DNA of 64,000 nucleotides from Pseudomonas sp. (GCF_051660785.1 NZ_JBOFQE010000012.1:347-64346), one strand, 5' to 3'. Positions 32,236 through 51,680 are shown, counted from the stretch's first letter. Made by a program: numbers and translations. Notes: generated by a model from the letters alone, not told the origin.

Positions 32236-32312
32236 GGGCCTATAGCTCAGTTGGTTAGAGCAGAGGACTCATAATCCTTTGGTCCACGGTTCAAATCCGT
32301 GTGGGCCCACCA
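32236..32312 (+). tRNA. tRNA with CAU anticodon, most likely tRNA-Ile2 (lysidine-modified)
   Basis: 77 nt. Acceptor stem GGGCCTA/TGGGCCC, anticodon loop CTCATAA, GGTTCAAATCC T-arm, encoded CCA. It lacks initiator hallmarks and sits near rpoD, like E. coli ileX. Confidence 0.93.
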
Positions 32313-32318
32313 AACAAG

Positions 32319-32347
32319 AAAGCCGCGCTGATGCGCGGCTTTCTTTT
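32319..32347 (+). terminator. tRNA terminator
   Basis: AAAGCCGCGC-TGAT-GCGCGGCTTT followed by CTTTT. Confidence 0.85.
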
Positions 32348-32377
32348 GATTTAACGAATCACGTAAATAGTGCTATC

Positions 32378-32503
32378 GAAGCGACTGACCGGATGAGATG
32401 GAGCGCTTCCCAGCGGCGAAAGCCGTAACCGCGCAAGGCGGTTCGCAAGTGGTGTCCGGATCTGCTTTAGCAAATCGAAGAAGACGCCTAGGGCGTCTTT
32501 TTT
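32378..32503 (+). ncRNA. Candidate structured small RNA of unknown family with its own terminator
   Basis: Stems GAAGCG/CGCTTC, CCGGAT/GTCCGG, GCGGC-GAAA-GCCGT and AACCGC-GCAAG-GCGGTT, then terminator AAGACGCC-TAG-GGCGTCTT-TTTT. Confidence 0.4.
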
Positions 32504-32530
32504 CGTTTCTGGCCTAGCAATACAGTCCTG

Positions 32531-32606
32531 CTCATCATCCTTTGGTCCACGATTCCTCGGTGTGTACCCATCAAACACGAAAGCCGCGCAAATGCGCGGC
32601 TTTTTT
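32531..32606 (+). repeat. Degenerate direct repeat of the tRNA 3' half plus terminator (att-like)
   Basis: CTCATCATCCTTTGGTCCACGATTC...CCATCAAACACGAAAGCCGCGCAAATGCGCGGCTTT versus tRNA CTCATAATCCTTTGGTCCACGGTTC...CCACCAAACAAGAAAGCCGCGCTGATGCGCGGCTTT; the similarity starts at the anticodon loop. Confidence 0.85.
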
Positions 32607-32632
32607 CTGAGACTAACGTTCGGGCTAAGAGA

Positions 32633-32818
32633 TCAGACCAGCCGAACCACCAAGGCAACAGCAACAAAGGTCACGAGCGCCAGTGCGGCACCGAGTCCAA
32701 ACGGCAGTAGGATTGCTCGGGTCGCGGTGGGGGACGGGCTACGCATGTCTTCGGCCAAGGCAGCCACGTCACGGTGTAACTGTTCAATGCTGGCTTGAAT
32801 CGTGGGAGGTGTGGACAT
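32633..32818 (-). CDS. 61-aa coiled-coil + C-terminal TM microprotein
   Basis: AGGAAG RBS 8 nt before ATG 32818; IEQLHRDVAALAEDM heptad followed by hydrophobic ILLPFGLGAALALVTFVAVALVV. Confidence 0.6.
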   Translation of the reverse strand: MSTPPTIQASIEQLHRDVAALAEDMRSPSPTATRAILLPFGLGAALALVTFVAVALVVRLV

Positions 32819-32943
32819 ACTGCGTCTTCCTGCAGGGATCACGGGTCACGCCTAATGCGCTAACCCTTGTTAGATAAGGTGGGCTGCTAAGCGGTAAAAC
32901 TCAAGCACCTCCGATCATTGGTCGCTTCCGTATGTTAGGGATT

Positions 32944-33138
32944 TTAAAGCTTGGACCACAGTCCGACGGCGGCGACAACGGCGGTCACGAGACCGGCGCC
33001 CACTGCAAACGGATACCAAAAAGCCTCCTGCCTGAGTTTGCTTTCTTCGGCCATAAACTTGCGGGTCTCGGCCATGAATTTCCGGATTTCGACTTGAAGC
33101 CTATCGAGCTCCAGATTATCGCGGTCATTTTGTAGCAT
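32944..33138 (-). CDS. 64-aa coiled-coil + C-terminal TM microprotein
   Basis: AGGAT RBS; heptad repeat RKFMAET-RKFMAEE followed by FWYPFAVGAGLVTAVVAAVGLW. Confidence 0.65.
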   Translation of the reverse strand: MLQNDRDNLELDRLQVEIRKFMAETRKFMAEESKLRQEAFWYPFAVGAGLVTAVVAAVGLWSKL

Positions 33139-33320
33139 CAGTCATCCTGTCGGGGCTCGGGTCGCGTCCAGTGCGCTACTCCGCGGCGGGAAATGCGTTT
33201 TTTCCTGTCTGCCGTCTAGGTTACATTTTGCGCTGACGGCAGATTATCGGATGACGTCTGCCAAGGTTGTAGGCAAACTCCGAGAATTGCGTAGCGGATG
33301 CGTTTGGGCACTTTTCCGCC

Positions 33321-33348
33321 TTGTTGGCGTTCTCTTCGACGGGATACT
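33321..33348 (+). promoter_or_regulatory. Putative sigma70 promoter for the C4/DUF3077 transcript
   Basis: TTGTTG-16 bp-GATACT upstream of the a1/b1 sites. Confidence 0.35.
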
Positions 33349-33458
33349 CTCCGGACGTCGCTGCAAATGTAGCGATCGGGTGTGGTAACCCGGCTAGACA
33401 AAGTGCAGCAGTGCTCCCATCACGGTTTCATGTGTTTTTACGCCTGTAATCCTGAGTT

Positions 33459-33540
33459 ATGGCGGCTGTGCGTGGGAGACCTTCGGGTCTGCCGGTTTCT
33501 TTGCTCTCCCGGTTTACCACCCTGCGTACAGCTGCCACCC
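33459..33540 (+). ncRNA. C4-type antisense RNA (P1 c4 / P4 CI family)
   Basis: Cloverleaf: outer stem GGCGGCTGTGCGTGGG / CCCTGCGTACAGCTGCC, hairpin AGACC-TTCG-GGTCT, hairpin GCCGG-loop-CCGGT. The single-stranded TTACCAC and TTTGCTC have complementary sites both upstream and downstream. Confidence 0.8.
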
Positions 33541-33578
33541 ATTCGTGTGGTAACGAATGCGGCAGCTCCTCGTTTTAA
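33459..33578 (+). CDS. Possible 39-aa ash-like upstream ORF overlapping the C4 RNA
   Basis: MAAVRGRPSGLPVSLLSRFTTLRTAATHSCGNECGSSSF*; its TAA is fused to the SD (TAAGGAG) of the next gene; weak RBS of its own. Confidence 0.3.
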   Translation: MAAVRGRPSGLPVSLLSRFTTLRTAATHSCGNECGSSSF

Positions 33579-33589
33579 GGAGCGAAACA

Positions 33590-33898
33590 ATGAGCAAAAC
33601 CAATTCCTCTGCACCGTCAGACCTGAAAACCATCGGTTTCACCCCACTCATCTACTGCTCGGATCAGGCGTTGTTCAACGTCCGCGCCGGCGTCCCCATC
33701 GTTGATGCATTGTCACAAGCCTCCGATCTGTTGTTCCTCGCAAAATCATTTGCCGAGGACGCAGCCTGCGCAAGAGACACCGACCGCCACGCCTGGGCCG
33801 CGCACTATCTGACGGCGATGGGTAAGGCGGTGATTGATGATGTGGTGAAGGTGCTGACACCGAGACCGCCTCGGACCGCAACGGAGTCTGAAGAATAG
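33590..33898 (+). CDS. DUF3077-like small protein
   Basis: AAGGAG RBS, ATG 33590. The sequence KTIGFTP..CSDQALFNVRAGVP..DAL..ASDLL..AK...AWAAHYL...KAVIDD matches the Pseudomonas DUF3077 pattern from memory. Confidence 0.7.
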   Translation: MSKTNSSAPSDLKTIGFTPLIYCSDQALFNVRAGVPIVDALSQASDLLFLAKSFAEDAACARDTDRHAWAAHYLTAMGKAVIDDVVKVLTPRPPRTATESEE

Positions 33899-33973
33899 CG
33901 ACGAACTATCCCCAAGTAGGCGCCTCGATTTTCTGGAGTCTTTAAATCACGACTGGGATAGCAGCTAGAAAGC

Positions 33974-34007
33974 AAAAAGCCCCGATGCTTTCGTATCAGG
34001 GCTTTTT
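33974..34007. terminator. Bidirectional terminator between convergent DUF3077 and DUF2188 genes
   Basis: AAAAAGCCCCGAT-GCTTTCGT-ATCAGGGCTTTTT. Confidence 0.75.
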
Positions 34008-34087
34008 GTAAATCTGAGTGTTGGCATTTCTATAAAAGCAAAACACAACACCGCCCGCCGCTCTCTCTCACTTGGCGGTCTGTCGAA

Positions 34088-34324
34088 TTAGTGTTTTTTG
34101 TCTTTCGGTGACGACGGATCATTGCCATAGCTATCGCTATCTCGAATTGTTCCGTCCTTTTTGTGAATAACGACTTCAACATGATCGCGCTTTGCTTGTT
34201 CCCGGGCACGATCGATCGCTTGCTGTTGGGTGTCGGTAACAACTCCTGCGCGCCCCGCTCCCTCCTTCTTTGTAGCCCAACCGTCCGGATGCGGAACAAC
34301 ATGAATATCTTTCTTGTCGCCCAT
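34088..34324 (-). CDS. DUF2188-family small protein
   Basis: IHVVPHPDGWATKKEGAGRA...TQQQAIDRAREQAK...VVIHKKDGTIRDSDSYGNDP is the family-typical pattern; GGAG RBS. Confidence 0.85.
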   Translation of the reverse strand: MGDKKDIHVVPHPDGWATKKEGAGRAGVVTDTQQQAIDRAREQAKRDHVEVVIHKKDGTIRDSDSYGNDPSSPKDKKH

Positions 34325-34433
34325 GTAAATTTTGCTCCATAAAGGTTTTCAGATACGTAGCGATGATGTCGCAGATGAAATGTAGTCAAGATCTCGGAAA
34401 CCGTTTTCTCGCTACCTCTCAACTACTCACTGT

Positions 34434-35111
34434 CTACGAATGATGATCGCCATGATGGGAATTGCCAGCCCAAACACTCACCGCCGGAATAGCCTGCACC
34501 AACCCCATCCGCTCAAGCACTTCCCTCGTCAACACGCCCTCATACGTATCCGTCGCCCTGCCCCATTGCTCGACGATACCCAGGCCATCTACCAACGCCT
34601 CACCCAAGCCGCTAATCGTATCGGCCAATGCCTCCACGATGGTTTGAGTGCGTAACCACAGGCGATCCGTAATCTCTTTCAGCTCTGCCGCTATACGGGC
34701 AGACGAAGCCGGATCCGTCTCCGGGTAGGTGATGTTGCGCAGTAAGTGCCGTAATTCCCTTATTTTTGCGTAGTCCTGTTCCGCCCCAAGCTCACCCCTC
34801 AGAATGGCGGTCGCCTTCGGCTTATCGACGCGACTCCCGGACGAATGCTTTAAAGCCAATGCCTGCGCCATAGCGCCAGCAAAGAGGACCATCATCCGGG
34901 CTTCCAGATGCTCCTTCATTGCCTCAATGGAGGAAATCGAACGCGCCAAGGTAATGGAGGCGCCGGCTTGATGCCTCAAGTCCATGGTGATGGTCAGGCT
35001 CACGCCACCCGTTTCAAATCCCAGGGCCCGGGCAACGACGTAGTGGCCCATTTCGTGATTGGCAATCTGCACGGCGTGATCCCGGACAGCGGGAGGCATC
35101 TTCTTCGTCAT
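34434..35111 (-). CDS. Stand-alone peptidase M41 (FtsH protease domain)-like zinc metalloprotease
   Basis: ANHEMGHYVVA (HExxH), LEARMMVLFAGAMAQ resembling FtsH LESQISTLYGGRLAE, and GAEQD resembling FtsH GASND (third ligand). No AAA+ or TM domain. GAGGTG RBS 6 nt before ATG 35111. Confidence 0.75.
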   Translation of the reverse strand: MTKKMPPAVRDHAVQIANHEMGHYVVARALGFETGGVSLTITMDLRHQAGASITLARSISSIEAMKEHLEARMMVLFAGAMAQALALKHSSGSRVDKPKATAILRGELGAEQDYAKIRELRHLLRNITYPETDPASSARIAAELKEITDRLWLRTQTIVEALADTISGLGEALVDGLGIVEQWGRATDTYEGVLTREVLERMGLVQAIPAVSVWAGNSHHGDHHS

Positions 35112-35145
35112 TTTGGTCACCTCGCATCCCTCGATTTCTCATTCG

Positions 35146-35174
35146 ACTATGACTGACAGTGGGTGTCCATCCAA
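35146..35174 (-). promoter_or_regulatory. Putative sigma70 promoter for the M41 gene
   Basis: Minus strand TTGGAT-17 bp-CATAGT; the -35 lies inside the third tRNA-derived repeat. Confidence 0.45.
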
Positions 35175-35206
35175 TAGAAAAAGCCGCGCAATGGCGCGGC
35201 TTTTTC
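35158..35206 (+). repeat. Third, heavily decayed copy of the tRNA 3' end plus terminator (right islet boundary; also a bidirectional terminator)
   Basis: GTGGGTGTCCATCCAATAGAAAAAGCCGCGC-AATG-GCGCGGCTTTTT; the GCCGCGC/GCGCGGC stem is identical to that of the tRNA terminator. Confidence 0.65.
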
Positions 35207-35224
35207 GTACCTGCGATTCAGTCT

Positions 35225-37588
35225 TTACTTGGGTAAGGCGTACGCAATTACATAGTCCCCCCGATCCGGCGACTGACGTGCGCCACCTACCGTCAGCAGG
35301 ATGTACTGCTTACCGGTTTTCGGCGAAACGTAAGTCATCGGGCCGGACTGACTACCCACAGGCAAGCGCGCCTTCCAGATCTCGTTGCCATTGCCGGTAT
35401 CGAAAGCGCGCAGGTAAAAATCCTGAGTGCCCGCGAAGAACAACAGGCCCGACTGAGTCGCCAGCGAAGCGCCGAGGGTCGGCATGCCGATCGGAATCGG
35501 CAGGTGCATGCGGATGCCCAGCGGACCGGTGTCTTGCACCGTGCCGACCGGGACTTGCCACATCAGTTTGTGGGTCTTGAGATCGATGGCCGACATCGTG
35601 CCGAACGGCGGTTTCTGGCACGGAATGCCTGCTGCCGAGAGGAAACGTTCGCGCATCGCACCGAACGGTGTGCCTTCCTGCGGCACCACGCCCATTTCAA
35701 TACCGCTGGCCCCGGCGGCGATCTTGTCGCGCGGGATCATGTAGTTGGCCAGGCCCAGGCGCATGTCGTTGACGAACATGTAATTCGTGTTCGGGTCCAC
35801 CGATACGCTGCCCCAGTTCATGCCGCCCAGCGAGCCCGGAAATTGCAACGCACGATCAAGGCCTGGCGGGGTGTAGACGCCTTCGTGGCGCATGCCTTTG
35901 AACTGGATGCGGCACATCAACTGGTCGAACGGCGTGGCGCCCCACATGTCGGATTCGGTCAGGGTTTTATTGCCGATTGACGGCATGTCCACCGAGAACG
36001 GCTGGGTCGGCGAGTAGCGCTCACCAGGCACGTTGCCTTGCGGCACCTTACGTTCTTCGACGCGGGCGATCGGCACGCCGGTCTCGCGGTTGAGCAGGAA
36101 GATCTCGCCCTGTTTGGTGACTTGCGCCAGGGCTGGCTGCATTCCGCCCTTGTCGTCCGGCACGTCGTACAGCAACGGTTGCGCCGGCAGGTCGAAATCC
36201 CACAGGTCGTGGTGAGTGGTCTGGAAGTGCCAGCGCACCTGACCGGTCTTCACGTCGATGGCGACGATGGACGAGTTCCACTTGTCGTCGAACTCGGTGC
36301 GCTGACCGCCGAAGAAGTCCGGCGTGGCGTTGCCGGTGGGCAGGTACACCAGACCGAGTCTGGCGTCGTAGGACATGGCCGACCAGACGTTCGGCGTGCC
36401 ACGGGAGTACGTCTCGCCAGCGGGCGGGCGTTTGGTGGTGTTCGGGTTGCCCGGATCCCACGCCCAGACCAATTCGCCGCTGCGCACGTCGTAGGCGCGG
36501 ACCACGCCTGGCGGTTCGCCAGTGGAGTAGTTATCGGCCACACGGCCACCGACGATCACCACATCACCGGCGACCAGCGGCGTCGAGGTCTGCTGGTAGT
36601 AACCCGGTTTCACTTCGCCCATGTCGGTGGTCAGATCGACCGTGCCCTGGTTGCCAAACTCTTCACATGGCTTGCCGGTGTCGGCATTGATCGCGATCAG
36701 ACGCGCATCGCCGGTCGGCAGAAACAGACGTTTCGTACAGGCAGTCGGCTGATTGTCCGAAGACGCGGGGGTTTCGGAATAGCCCAGGCCACGGCAACGC
36801 TGCCAGTTCGGCGCGGTGCCTTGCGGGTCGAACTTCCAGCGTTGGGCGCCGGTGTCAGCGTCCAGGGCGAAGACTTTCCCGTAGGCGGTGCAGGTGTAGA
36901 CCGTGTCGCCGATCTGCAGCGGCGTATTCTGGTCTTCGGCGCCGGCGCCCGTGCTTTGCGGGATGTCGCCGGTGCGGAAGGTCCAGGCCACCTGCAACTT
37001 GTCGATGTTGCCTTTGTTAATCTGGTCCAGCGCGGCAAAGCGGTTGCCAGCGGTGGTATTGCCCCAGTGGGCCCAGTCTTTCTGCTCGGAGCCCGGTTTG
37101 ACCGGCGTTACGGCCGGCTCAGTCGTGGCTTCGACAACGTGGGTCGGCACGAACATGTAGGCCATGGTTGCAACAACGCTAACGCCCAAGATGCCGGCCA
37201 AGCCATAAGCCCCACGGCCCGCCGTCGCGCCCGAAGCACGCGCCAGCGCTGGATAAATCAGCGCGATCACCAGGCCGATCACGGCAAAGGTCAACACTCG
37301 CGAAACCAGCGGCCAGTATTCAAAACCGCTGTCCCACACAGCCCAGATCGCCGTCAGGATCAACGCCACGCCATACAACCACGCGCCTTGCGGTTTACGA
37401 CGGGCAATCATCAGCCCGGACACCAACATCGCCAGGCCCATCAGCAGGAAGTACCAGCTCCCGCCAAGCGCCACCAGATAACCACCGCCACCGGCCAGAC
37501 CAAGCCCGATCAAGGCAATCAGGACACCCAGCCCCACCAGTAACCATTTGCCGCCGGTGGCAGCCCCAGAATTATTCATGTCGATCAT
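35225..37588 (-). CDS. Membrane-bound PQQ-dependent dehydrogenase, glucose/quinate/shikimate family (QuiA-like)
   Basis: Five N-terminal TM helices, beta-propeller W motifs, WQRCRGLGY, HHDLWDFDLPAQP and GSLGGMNWGS; probable start ATG 37588. Confidence 0.9.
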   Translation of the reverse strand: MIDMNNSGAATGGKWLLVGLGVLIALIGLGLAGGGGYLVALGGSWYFLLMGLAMLVSGLMIARRKPQGAWLYGVALILTAIWAVWDSGFEYWPLVSRVLTFAVIGLVIALIYPALARASGATAGRGAYGLAGILGVSVVATMAYMFVPTHVVEATTEPAVTPVKPGSEQKDWAHWGNTTAGNRFAALDQINKGNIDKLQVAWTFRTGDIPQSTGAGAEDQNTPLQIGDTVYTCTAYGKVFALDADTGAQRWKFDPQGTAPNWQRCRGLGYSETPASSDNQPTACTKRLFLPTGDARLIAINADTGKPCEEFGNQGTVDLTTDMGEVKPGYYQQTSTPLVAGDVVIVGGRVADNYSTGEPPGVVRAYDVRSGELVWAWDPGNPNTTKRPPAGETYSRGTPNVWSAMSYDARLGLVYLPTGNATPDFFGGQRTEFDDKWNSSIVAIDVKTGQVRWHFQTTHHDLWDFDLPAQPLLYDVPDDKGGMQPALAQVTKQGEIFLLNRETGVPIARVEERKVPQGNVPGERYSPTQPFSVDMPSIGNKTLTESDMWGATPFDQLMCRIQFKGMRHEGVYTPPGLDRALQFPGSLGGMNWGSVSVDPNTNYMFVNDMRLGLANYMIPRDKIAAGASGIEMGVVPQEGTPFGAMRERFLSAAGIPCQKPPFGTMSAIDLKTHKLMWQVPVGTVQDTGPLGIRMHLPIPIGMPTLGASLATQSGLLFFAGTQDFYLRAFDTGNGNEIWKARLPVGSQSGPMTYVSPKTGKQYILLTVGGARQSPDRGDYVIAYALPK

Positions 37589-46918: not shown

Positions 46919-48710
46919 ACCCTTCAGCGCCTCCCGGGCCGTCGCGGCCGGTATCGACTTCGCCGAGTTGCTGGTCGGCCAGCATGGCCTGTTCTGGAAC
47001 GAATACCGACCCGAAGATGCCGCGTGCAGGATCTGGCATTGGCGCGACGGTCAGGCCCGTTGCCTTACGCCGGCCGGCTTCAGCGTCCGCAGTCGAGTGT
47101 ACGAATATGGCGGTGGCGCGTTTTGTCTGACCGATGACGGGATTGTTTTCGTCAACGAGGCGGACCAACAGCTCTATCGGCAATCCCTGGCGGGCGAGAC
47201 ACCTGAGGTACTGACCTCGAGTGAATGCCGTTTCGGCGATCTGCAATTTACCAATGGCCAGGTGCTCGCGGTTGAAGAGAACCGTGACCGGCATCGTCTG
47301 GTCGCGATCGATGTGGCTGACGGCCGGCGTCATCTGCTGGCCGAAGGCGCCGATTTCTATGCTGCGCCGACGCTGAGTCCCGACGCGCAACGATTGGCGT
47401 GGATCGAATGGAGCCGCCCGGATCAGCCATGGACCGCGACTCGGCTGATGGTTGCCGAACGCCGGGACGATGGAGGCTTTGCTCAACCGCGTTGTGTGGC
47501 GGGCGAAGGTATTCAGGAGTCGCTGCAACAACCTCGTTTCGACAGCGACGGCCGTCTGTTTTGCCTGACGGATCGTGCCGGCTACTGGCAGCCTTGGGTG
47601 GAATCCGCAGAAGGCCTGAGCCCGTTGCCGAGCGCCGCCGCTGATCACGGTCCGGCGCCGTGGCAGCTGGGTGGCAACACCTGGATGCCGCTGGGCGAAG
47701 GCAACTATCTGGCCAGTTGGACCGAAGACGGGTTTGGCAAACTGGGCATTTGCGGTGACGCCGCTGAAGATTTCACCGCTGATTACAGCCGCTTTCGCCA
47801 TCTCGCACTGGATGAGCGATTCATCTACTGCATCGCGGCATCACCCGTCAGTTCTTCGGCGGTGATCGCGATCGAGCGCGATACCCGACAGGTCAAAATC
47901 CTCGCCGGGGGCATTGCACCGTTACCCGCCGAGCAGATCAGCGTCCCGCAAACCCTGCGCTACCCGAGCGGTTCGGGCGAGGCCCACGGTTTCTTCTATC
48001 CGGCGATGACCGGCGAGGCGAAACCGCCGCTGGTGGTGTTCATCCACGGCGGCCCGACCTCAGCCTGCTACCCGATGCTCGATCCACGTATTCAATACTG
48101 GGCGCAGCGCGGCTTCGCCGTGGCCGATCTCAATTACCGCGGCAGCAGTGGTTATGGCCGGGCTTATCGCCAGGCGCTGCATTTGAGTTGGGGCGAAGTC
48201 GATGTAGAGGATGCCTGCGCCGTAGTCGCTCATCTCTCCGAACGGGGATTGATCGACGGCGAAAAGGCCTTTATCCGCGGTGGCAGTGCCGGCGGTTACA
48301 CCACCCTTTGTGCGTTGGCCTTTCACAACGTCTTCCGCGCGGGTGCCAGCCTTTATGGTGTAAGCGACCCAGTAGCACTCGGCCACGCAACCCATAAGTT
48401 CGAAGGCGATTACCTGGATTGGCTGATCGGCGACCCGATACAGGATGCCGAACGCTACGCCGCACGCACACCGTTGCTGCACGCGAGCAACATCAGTGTT
48501 CCGGTGATTTTCTTTCAGGGCGAACTGGACGCCGTGGTCGTGCCGCAACAGACTCGCGACATGGTCAAGGCGCTACAGGGCAACGGCATTCTGGTTGACG
48601 CGCATTACTACGCGGACGAACGTCATGGCTTTCGCAAGGCGGGGAACCAGGCCCATGCGCTGGAGCAGGAGTGGTTGTTTTATCGGCGGGTGATGGAGTT
48701 GTCGGACTGA
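46884..48710 (+). CDS. S9 (prolyl oligopeptidase) family peptidase associated with the pqq operon
   Basis: IHGGP, GGSAGG nucleophile, D(ELDAVV) and H(ERHGF) triad; overlaps pqqE by 35 bp. Confidence 0.9.
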
Positions 48711-51562: not shown

Positions 51563-51680
51563 AAAACCCCGCCGAAGCGGGGCTTTGCAGACTGTTTCCC
51601 TGACATCCATTTCACTCCGCCGTCCTGGCAGAATCCTACGTGTCCGTGTTGTTGCTTTGCGCTTCCTGCGCGACGTCCAT
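51563..51680 (-). ncRNA. rsmY: RsmY small RNA (RsmA/RsmE sponge)
   Basis: 118 nt starting ATGGACGTCGCGCAGGAAGCGC, with multiple GGA motifs, ending GCAAAGCCCCGCTTCGGCGGGGTTTT; GacA box upstream. Confidence 0.95.

Follow-up and report, generated by a model that had tools for sequence, protein, structure and literature searches.

A C4 antisense module in front of a DUF3077 gene

The stretch of Pseudomonas sp. DNA analysed here (GCF_051660785.1, NZ_JBOFQE010000012.1:347-64346), 64,000 nucleotides in length and hereafter called the window, contains a compact module in which an antisense RNA of the C4 family, accompanied by a leader and by target sites, lies directly upstream of a gene of the DUF3077 family (Table 1). 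Scans with cmscan and Pfam called C4 (RF01695), the c4-a1b1 leader (RF03163) and DUF3077 (PF11275), and these calls, together with the collinearity with phage P1 set out below, bear out the claim of an earlier note on this DNA that a complete P1-type a1/b1-C4-a2/b2 switch is wired to a DUF3077 gene. The sequence features listed in that note are all present, and its coordinates are correct throughout.

Table 1. Features of the C4-DUF3077 module and of its surroundings (positions in the window)
Feature	Position	Strand	Remarks
Putative sigma-70 promoter	33321-33350	+	-35 TTGTTG (33321-26) or TTGGCG (33324-29); -10 TACTCT (33345-50)
c4-a1b1 leader (RF03163)	33344-33396	+	cmscan, 47.7 bits against a gathering score of 46.7
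a1b1 hairpin 1	33357-33376	+	
a1b1 hairpin 2	33377-33392	+	a1 = GTGGTAA (33382-88) within the loop
b1, CAAAG	33399-33403	+	weak 5-bp complement of the b' loop
C4 antisense RNA (RF01695)	33455-33542	+	cmscan, 81.4 bits against a gathering score of 45; model positions 1-87, full-length
b' loop, 13 nt	33496-33508	+	DNA TTTCTTTGCTCTC, RNA UUUCUUUGCUCUC; contains TTTGCTC (33500-06)
a', TTACCAC (UUACCAC)	33514-33520	+	7-nt junction of the C4 model
a2 hairpin, CATTCGT/ACGAATG	33540-33559	+	immediately 3' of C4; loop a2 = GTGGTAA (33547-53)
Shine-Dalgarno (SD) hairpin and b2 region	33565-33586	+	cis anti-SD GCTCCT (33565-70) pairs with AGGAGC (33578-83)
SD, AAGGAG	33577-33582	+	overlapped by b2; 3 nt before ATG 33590
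b2, GGAGCGAA	33579-33586	+	8 bp with b', 2 of them G.U
DUF3077 gene (PF11275)	33590-33898	+	102 aa; E 1.1e-31, 109.3 bits against a cut-off of 21; model positions 1-77 of 77
Terminator-like inverted repeat (I5)	33973-34008	.	14-nt arms, 93% complementary; flanking A/T runs
tRNA-Met	32236-32312		
Duplicate of tRNA-Met 3' half with terminator hairpin	32531-32610		83-92% identity
DUF2188 gene	34088-34324	-	convergent with the DUF3077 gene
HEMGH-motif protein gene	34434-35120	-	228 aa
Third terminator copy	35171-35203		beside gcd
RsmY	51563-51680		cmscan

The C4 RNA has a three-stem fold, comprising a closing stem, a tetraloop hairpin (CUUCGG) and a hairpin that carries b', and this fold is supported by covariation: in an RNAalifold alignment of 37 paralogues from the same genome, 14 of the 24 predicted pairs show compensatory changes. 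The scaffold is conserved among the paralogues, and the parts that vary are a' and b'. The predicted mature RNA extends from about 33461 to 33538, and 3' of the closing stem it bears an ACC tail similar to a tRNA acceptor end. At the window locus, a' is fully complementary (7/7) to both a1 and a2, which share the sequence GTGGTAA (GUGGUAA in the RNA), and the duplex of b' with b2 has a predicted energy of -10.2 kcal/mol (RNAduplex). The b1 site lies directly 3' of the a1b1 motif, which is the position given for it in the literature on the family (PMC2864571, supplement 1). An alternative b1, GCAAA (33363-67), in the loop of the first a1b1 hairpin, was dropped, as it breaks the a-then-b order and contradicts the placement by Weinberg et al. 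In the leaders of the paralogous modules the SD is paired in the minimum free energy fold of 22 out of 28, the upstream anti-SD having the consensus GCUCC, and the loop of this SD hairpin holds the variable 5' portion of b2. Both a2 and b2 are thus borne on hairpins, an arrangement that suits loop-loop initiation.

The module is likely to have its own sigma-70 promoter with a transcription start near 33357, because the region aligns with the annotated promoter of P1 and because the TAnnnT hexamer is conserved at the start of 36 of the 37 a1b1 matches in the genome. At the other end, the DUF3077 and DUF2188 genes converge on a terminator-like inverted repeat that marks the limit of the module; it was not called by a stricter terminator scan.

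The earlier note had also described a 39-codon, ash-like upstream open reading frame (ORF) that ends at the SD. Such an ORF does exist (33459-33578), and its start codon is the AUG of a conserved AUGG at the 5' edge of C4. As a conserved ash-like reading frame, it did not hold up: the frame opened by this AUG ranges from 8 to more than 55 codons among the paralogues, five of which lack the AUG altogether. Judged from these comparisons, the 39-codon ORF is an artefact of the conserved AUG of C4 and no gene, and the location of its stop beside the SD is a coincidence. Genuine icd-like leader ORFs were found downstream of b2 in other DUF3077 modules (see below).

Individually addressed C4 cassettes across the genome

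The window module is one of 38 in its genome rather than a single instance. The whole assembly yields 38 C4 matches, 37 of them above the gathering score, and an a1b1 motif is found upstream of 35 of the 38. These elements usually follow one another in the order promoter, a1b1, C4, a2 hairpin, b2 over the ribosome-binding site, and small ORF. In nearly all copies a hairpin at +3 to +16 bears the complement of the copy's own a' (a2), and further on, at about +30 to +47, a complement of its b' spans the SD of an ORF that begins (ATG) at +41 to +56. The ORFs behind C4, which we term the cargo, comprise about 22 of the DUF6124 family (PF19619), five of DUF3077, about five of a family without a name and two Bro-N proteins resembling the anti-repressor Ant; no ORF follows the C4 copy at C87:28089, and one other copy is truncated by the end of its contig. 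Seen from the side of the cargo, all five strong DUF3077 genes and 22 of the 28 DUF6124 genes of the genome are placed directly behind a C4. The similarity of the window module to its closest paralogue (contig C90) is confined to 33245-33895, and a search for recurrent neighbouring genes around the 38 modules found none beyond the cargo ORFs; because the similarity ends at these two points and no neighbour family recurs, we take the repeated unit to be a cassette of about 0.65 kb.

To quantify the pairing, we scored the longest antiparallel run, with G.U allowed, of every C4 against the flanks of every module, using 37 modules and 10,000 permutations. The cognate mean run exceeds the non-cognate one for each of the four pairings: 7.05 versus 4.62 for a'/a2 (median cognate run 7), 8.05 versus 5.74 for b'/b2, 7.14 versus 5.16 for a'/a1 and 7.19 versus 6.54 for b'/b1. 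The observed mean was reached in 0/10,000 permutations for the first three and in 13/10,000 for b'/b1. A dual match, with both runs at least 7, is seen in 26 of 37 cognate pairs versus 13 of 1332 non-cognate pairs. There are 26 variants of a' and 37 of b', such that the (a', b') pair is different in each of the 37 complete modules; the a' of the window module occurs once in the genome and is shared by no other copy. We propose from these patterns that each C4 would mainly control its own small helical-hairpin protein, and that the addresses diverged along with their own targets.

Several features of individual modules are recorded here in their own right. The cargo family without a name consists of proteins of about 87-108 residues with the motif LFVDT..APL...RIRAVTQ.LENL (L051:429-752:-, L054:445-765:+, L026:487-747:-, L052:436-729:+ and L022:455-745:-), and it has no Pfam, PADLOC or PHROG match. 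Two DUF6124 genes (C67:6438-6810 and C93:41858-42287) retain the promoter and a1b1 with no detectable C4 before an intact ORF; such variants should be derepressed, if the switch operates as its layout predicts. A sub-family of 13 DUF6124 modules (e.g., L031, L047 and L042) shares a highly conserved stretch, TGTTTAA ... GCTACAnnnCCTTGCGCCGTTGCCTACGnCTGCGCCAGAATCCGCCGGCTTGTGCGCC, before the -10 and about 110 nt upstream of the start of a1b1, in which CTACA/CCTACG words repeated two helical turns apart suggest a candidate protein-binding site. One of the two Bro-N modules is of the phage type (C26:69141-70327, L018): its C4 precedes the gene of a 175-residue Bro-N protein with matches to PHROG families of the anti-repressor Ant, and an integrase lies 4.7 kb away.

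Distribution and co-diversification in Pseudomonas

C4 is found in 22 of 24 sampled genus-mates, with 0-43 copies per genome and at least 20 copies in 13 of them. In 16 other genera of the order it is present as a single copy or was not found. DUF3077 is present in 52 of 80 genus-mates. The earlier note had proposed surveying the linkage of C4 to DUF3077 and the covariation of a' with a2 across genomes, and both were observed. When the best DUF3077 locus of each of 29 other genomes is taken, the gene is directly preceded by a C4 on its own strand in 27. Among these 27 loci a' takes 11 different forms, for each of which the a2 hairpin holds a perfect complement, and b2 matches lie over an SD. 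Two layouts occur among the DUF3077 modules: in that of the window type, b2 covers the SD of DUF3077 itself, and in the other it covers the SD of a leader ORF of 21-38 codons that ends in an ATGA overlap with the start of DUF3077. The syntenic locus of G006, the closest genome, is 93% identical, and the differences are concentrated in b', b1 and b2, whose match to one another is retained; the module is kept at the same site in G006, G003 and G013 with 71-93% identity.

Across 25 genomes, the copy number of C4 follows that of DUF6124 and DUF3077 together (totals of 454 versus 333; Spearman 0.88), although these genomes are related and the correlation is descriptive only. One genome (G011) has 38 C4 copies and only one DUF6124 and two DUF3077 genes, from which it follows that further cargo families exist and must predominate in that genome.

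These data bear on a reading in which the C4 RNAs are themselves the functional product and act in trans, either as an immunity library against phage antirepressor/icd genes or as regulators of unlinked host mRNAs, with the ORFs as secondary passengers. C4 confers superinfection immunity in P1/P7, the genome offers 26 different a' and 37 different b' sequences, and one copy (C87:28089) lacks an ORF. Both roles were also proposed by Weiss et al. for 21 C4-like small RNAs (sRNAs) of A. baumannii (PMC5320573). However, among the module flanks compared, each C4 finds its best match in its own, and within a locus b', b1 and b2 have evolved together, a pattern that purely trans-acting RNAs would not need. 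Purifying selection acts on the cargo ORFs, and their families are almost always linked to C4, both here and in the DUF3077 loci of other genomes (5/5, 22/28 and 27/29, as above). We accordingly regard trans action as the main function as quite unlikely, and C4 may have a trans role alongside its cis role.

The DUF3077 protein and its relatives

The DUF3077 ORF is under purifying selection, with a ratio of nonsynonymous to synonymous substitution rates (dN/dS) of 0.155 against the G006 orthologue and 0.125 against the C90 paralogue. Its product is acidic and not hydrophobic (isoelectric point (pI) 5.25, grand average of hydropathy (GRAVY) -0.05) and has no membrane helix. In an AlphaFold2 model the N-terminal third is disordered and precedes a two-helix hairpin (H37-60 and H65-89), with a mean predicted local distance difference test (pLDDT) score of 67 and values of 80-91 in the helices; the same plan is predicted for DUF6124. 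One gene (C20:196268-196459) is matched by both the DUF3077 and the DUF6124 Pfam models, and the ESM Atlas clusters nearest to DUF3077 are DUF6124, for which reasons the two families are probably related. Comparison by hhalign of the DUF3077, DUF6124 and nameless-family alignments gives collinear matches with E values of 0.07-0.2. No similarity of P1 Icd to DUF3077 or DUF6124 was detected.

All 574 DUF3077 homologues with a source name come from Pseudomonas. A search of 50,697 phage records found no match to DUF3077, and 72,556 plasmids yielded a single one. For DUF6124 the plasmids yielded nothing, and the one match lies at the edge of a prophage-like record. A small PHROG (36471) matches DUF3077. 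PADLOC has no match to DUF3077, DUF6124 or the third, nameless cargo family. Our best guess is that DUF3077 is a protein-binding modulator that occupies the slot held by ant/icd in the phage systems.

The properties of the protein are central to the idea, raised in the earlier note, that C4 acts as an RNA antitoxin. In its fullest form this would be a type I-like toxin-antitoxin or addiction module, in which DUF3077 is toxic, C4 is the antitoxin and the cassettes are selfish and multiplying. The SD of a small ORF would indeed be occluded by an RNA; the cassettes are multi-copy, dispersed, autonomous and without conserved neighbours, like chromosomal type I families; and the P1 counterpart, icd, is a cell-division inhibitor. 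Typical type I toxins are small hydrophobic peptides. DUF3077 differs from such membrane-active toxins in being acidic and, by prediction, a soluble helical hairpin without any membrane segment. Further, C4 is predicted to be a stable, tRNA-like RNA released from the same transcript as its target, the opposite of a labile antitoxin. A DUF3077 protein has been detected in growing cells (PMC13515162). The two C4-less DUF6124 modules retain their promoter, a1b1 and intact ORF, and PADLOC lacks matches to either family. For these reasons, namely the soluble protein, the predicted stability and co-transcription of the RNA, the presence of a DUF3077 protein in growing cells and the intact ORFs without C4, the antitoxin reading lacks support and we consider it unlikely.

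Genomic context

The module is situated in a 2.8-kb variable islet between tRNA-Met and gcd. A degenerate duplicate of the 3' half of this tRNA, from the anticodon loop onward, lies within the islet along with a terminator hairpin, and a third copy of the terminator is found beside gcd. These duplicates look like att-type scars of two successive insertions, with the C4-DUF3077 module in the second interval. The contig that carries the module (C12) has no integrase match, no phage genes flank the module and DUF3077 is missing from the phage records searched, in agreement with the earlier note's placement of the module outside any prophage. Genome-wide, only one of the 38 C4 copies, the Bro-N/Ant copy on contig C26, lies within 10 kb of an integrase.

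Given the islet, the module might be read as an inert relic that a prophage or integrative element, since decayed, left at tRNA-Met, and in favour of this reading one might cite the duplicated tRNA 3' half, the repeated terminators and the presence in the same genome of a classical C4-Bro-N/Ant module 4.7 kb from an integrase. Against this, selection has preserved the RNA structure, the complementarity to the targets and the ORF alike, and the module is conserved at its site in G006, G003 and G013. The cargo families are, in addition, essentially absent from phage and plasmid collections, and integrases are near a single C4 copy. We hold it to be very improbable that the module is such a relic.

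Among the neighbours, the DUF2188 gene has matches to phrog_3220 and to PDC-S16, a candidate defence family of PADLOC (E 7e-32), and it is replaced by a different sequence at the syntenic site of G006. The 228-residue protein encoded beyond it has a HEMGH zinc-peptidase motif with weak, sub-threshold Pfam matches to M41 and M50, and it stays beside the C4-DUF3077 module in G006 (89% identity) and G003 (70%). Elsewhere, a tRNA gene lies within about 1.5 kb of 5 of the 30 sampled DUF3077 loci (L079, L074, L084, L088 and L057), hinting that C4-DUF3077 cassettes are often located at tRNA-linked variable spots.

A probable chromosomal antisense switch with its own cargo

Taken together, these observations make it probable, in our assessment, that the window module is an autonomous chromosomal antisense switch of the P1-immI type that holds its own DUF3077 ORF at a low basal level. 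The proposed mechanism begins with the module promoter, which would generate a single transcript that runs from the a1/b1 leader through C4, the a2 hairpin and the b2/SD hairpin to the DUF3077 ORF. C4, as a stable and tRNA-like RNA of about 78 nt, would then be freed by RNase P and 3' trimming. By analogy with other C4 RNAs, the RNase P cut is expected at AU|GG; processing of the RNase P type is known for P1 and was suggested by RNA-seq for the 21 A. baumannii sRNAs (PMC5320573). The C4 junction a' (UUACCAC) would pair with the loop of the a2 hairpin, and the b' loop would next pair with GGAGCGAA across the SD, which is itself half-hidden by the cis anti-SD stem. The pairing of b' with b2 over the SD would block translation of DUF3077, such that C4 would swap a weak cis block for a stronger trans block. 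The leader sites a1 and b1 are likely built-in decoys that set a threshold, and DUF3077 would rise only when its mRNA outruns C4, for instance with a fresh copy, in a promoter burst or upon loss of C4. The earlier note's idea that DUF3077 is switched on upon arrival in a naive cell may also hold.

Several points weigh against this proposal. The RF03163 match is marginal, at about 1 bit above its gathering score, and a consensus promoter scan called no site in 32300-35300. The pairings at the window locus are short, with 5 bp for b1 and, for b2, 8 bp that include 2 G.U pairs. The SD is already sequestered in cis without C4. When the DUF3077 model was compared with the PDB by Foldseek, all matches were generic helical hairpins with E values above 1, and no functional lead emerged. 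Finally, a DUF3077 protein was detected in the proteome of Pseudomonas sp. UW4 (PMC13515162), so repression is not absolute.

Beyond the single locus, we tentatively put forward the possibility that in the P. fluorescens lineage the phage immI circuit has turned into a chromosomal gene-family architecture, with tens of orthogonal C4 switches per genome, each gating one small helical-hairpin protein of the DUF6124, DUF3077 or nameless family, and with addresses that co-diversify. If this is true, these would constitute a new class of RNA-gated chromosomal modules, whose biology might lie in pulse expression on acquisition, in a kin or immunity function, or in a bank of anti-regulator proteins. 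C4, a textbook phage immunity RNA, is here a standing feature of the bacterial chromosome, in tens of copies with different addresses. The near-obligate partnership with C4 is the first regulatory context for DUF3077 and DUF6124, families essentially confined to Pseudomonas, and it turns the function of their proteins into a testable question. The approximately 37 natural orthogonal RNA-target pairs are also a resource from which antisense specificity could be studied or borrowed.

Comparison with known C4 systems

The closest parallel is the immI region of phages P1 and P7, said to have been described by Citron and Schuster in 1990, which consists of the P51 promoters, a1 and b1, the c4 antisense RNA, a2 and b2, icd and ant1/ant2. 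In the P1 record (NC_005856) the -10 of P1c4 is at 48218-23, a1 at 48255-61, b1 at 48269-76, c4 at 48343-48419, a2 at 48423-29, b2 at 48452-59 and the icd ATG at 48470, and a pairwise alignment places all of these annotated elements in register with the window, from the -10 to the ATG. The P1c4 (P51b) -10 TATAGT aligns with TACTCT (33345-50), and the P1 -35 with TTGGCG/TTGTTG (33321-29). The two systems share the RNA family, the order of elements, a near-identical spacing and the position of b2 over the ribosome-binding site; in the sister DUF3077 modules, the leader ORF is even coupled to the cargo by an ATGA overlap, as icd is to ant1. They differ in that the window module has neither a prophage nor a C1 operator, has DUF3077 instead of icd/ant as its cargo, and has b2 directly on the cargo SD with no leader ORF, and in that Pseudomonas chromosomes hold tens of differently addressed copies. 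The phage immI immunity systems (P1/P7, N15 and P4 relatives) are defined by a phage location and by icd/ant, kil or antirepressor cargo under repressor control, and the window module has neither. Closer at hand, the Bro-N cassette on contig C26 of the same genome obeys the same switch logic, with b' over the ribosome-binding site of the next gene, but it is of the phage type with an antirepressor-like cargo, as against DUF3077 in a non-phage context.

The C4 motif was first found in intergenic regions of Pseudomonadales, with a1 inside a two-hairpin motif and b1 just 3' of it, and bacterial copies were ascribed to "phage integration events" (Weinberg et al. 2010, PMC2864571). The text consulted does not mention DUF3077 or DUF6124 as cargo, how many copies a genome has or the addressing of each copy to its own sites. 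Our findings correct the assumption that bacterial C4 matches mark integrated phages. In the literature searched we found nothing on DUF6124, just two passing mentions of DUF3077 and nothing on C4 in Pseudomonas beyond Weinberg et al.

The Group 1 sRNAs of A. baumannii AB5075 provide the other precedent: 21 chromosomal C4-like sRNAs with a variable specificity loop, highly expressed and processed at a GGW site like phage C4, for which trans targets were proposed and no cis-encoded targets or cargo named (Weiss et al. 2016, PMC5320573). In both cases a single genome contains numerous C4 homologues that lie outside prophages and differ in their specificity loops. Unlike those of Acinetobacter, each Pseudomonas copy has its own a1/b1 and a2/b2 and is predicted to gate a DUF6124, DUF3077 or nameless-family protein. 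The C4 RNA family and its mechanism, as well as a multi-copy chromosomal C4 family in Acinetobacter, were already known, and what is new relative to the literature we found is the way in which C4 is built into cassettes in Pseudomonas, the near-obligate coupling of these cassettes to DUF3077 and DUF6124, and the joint diversification of their addresses.

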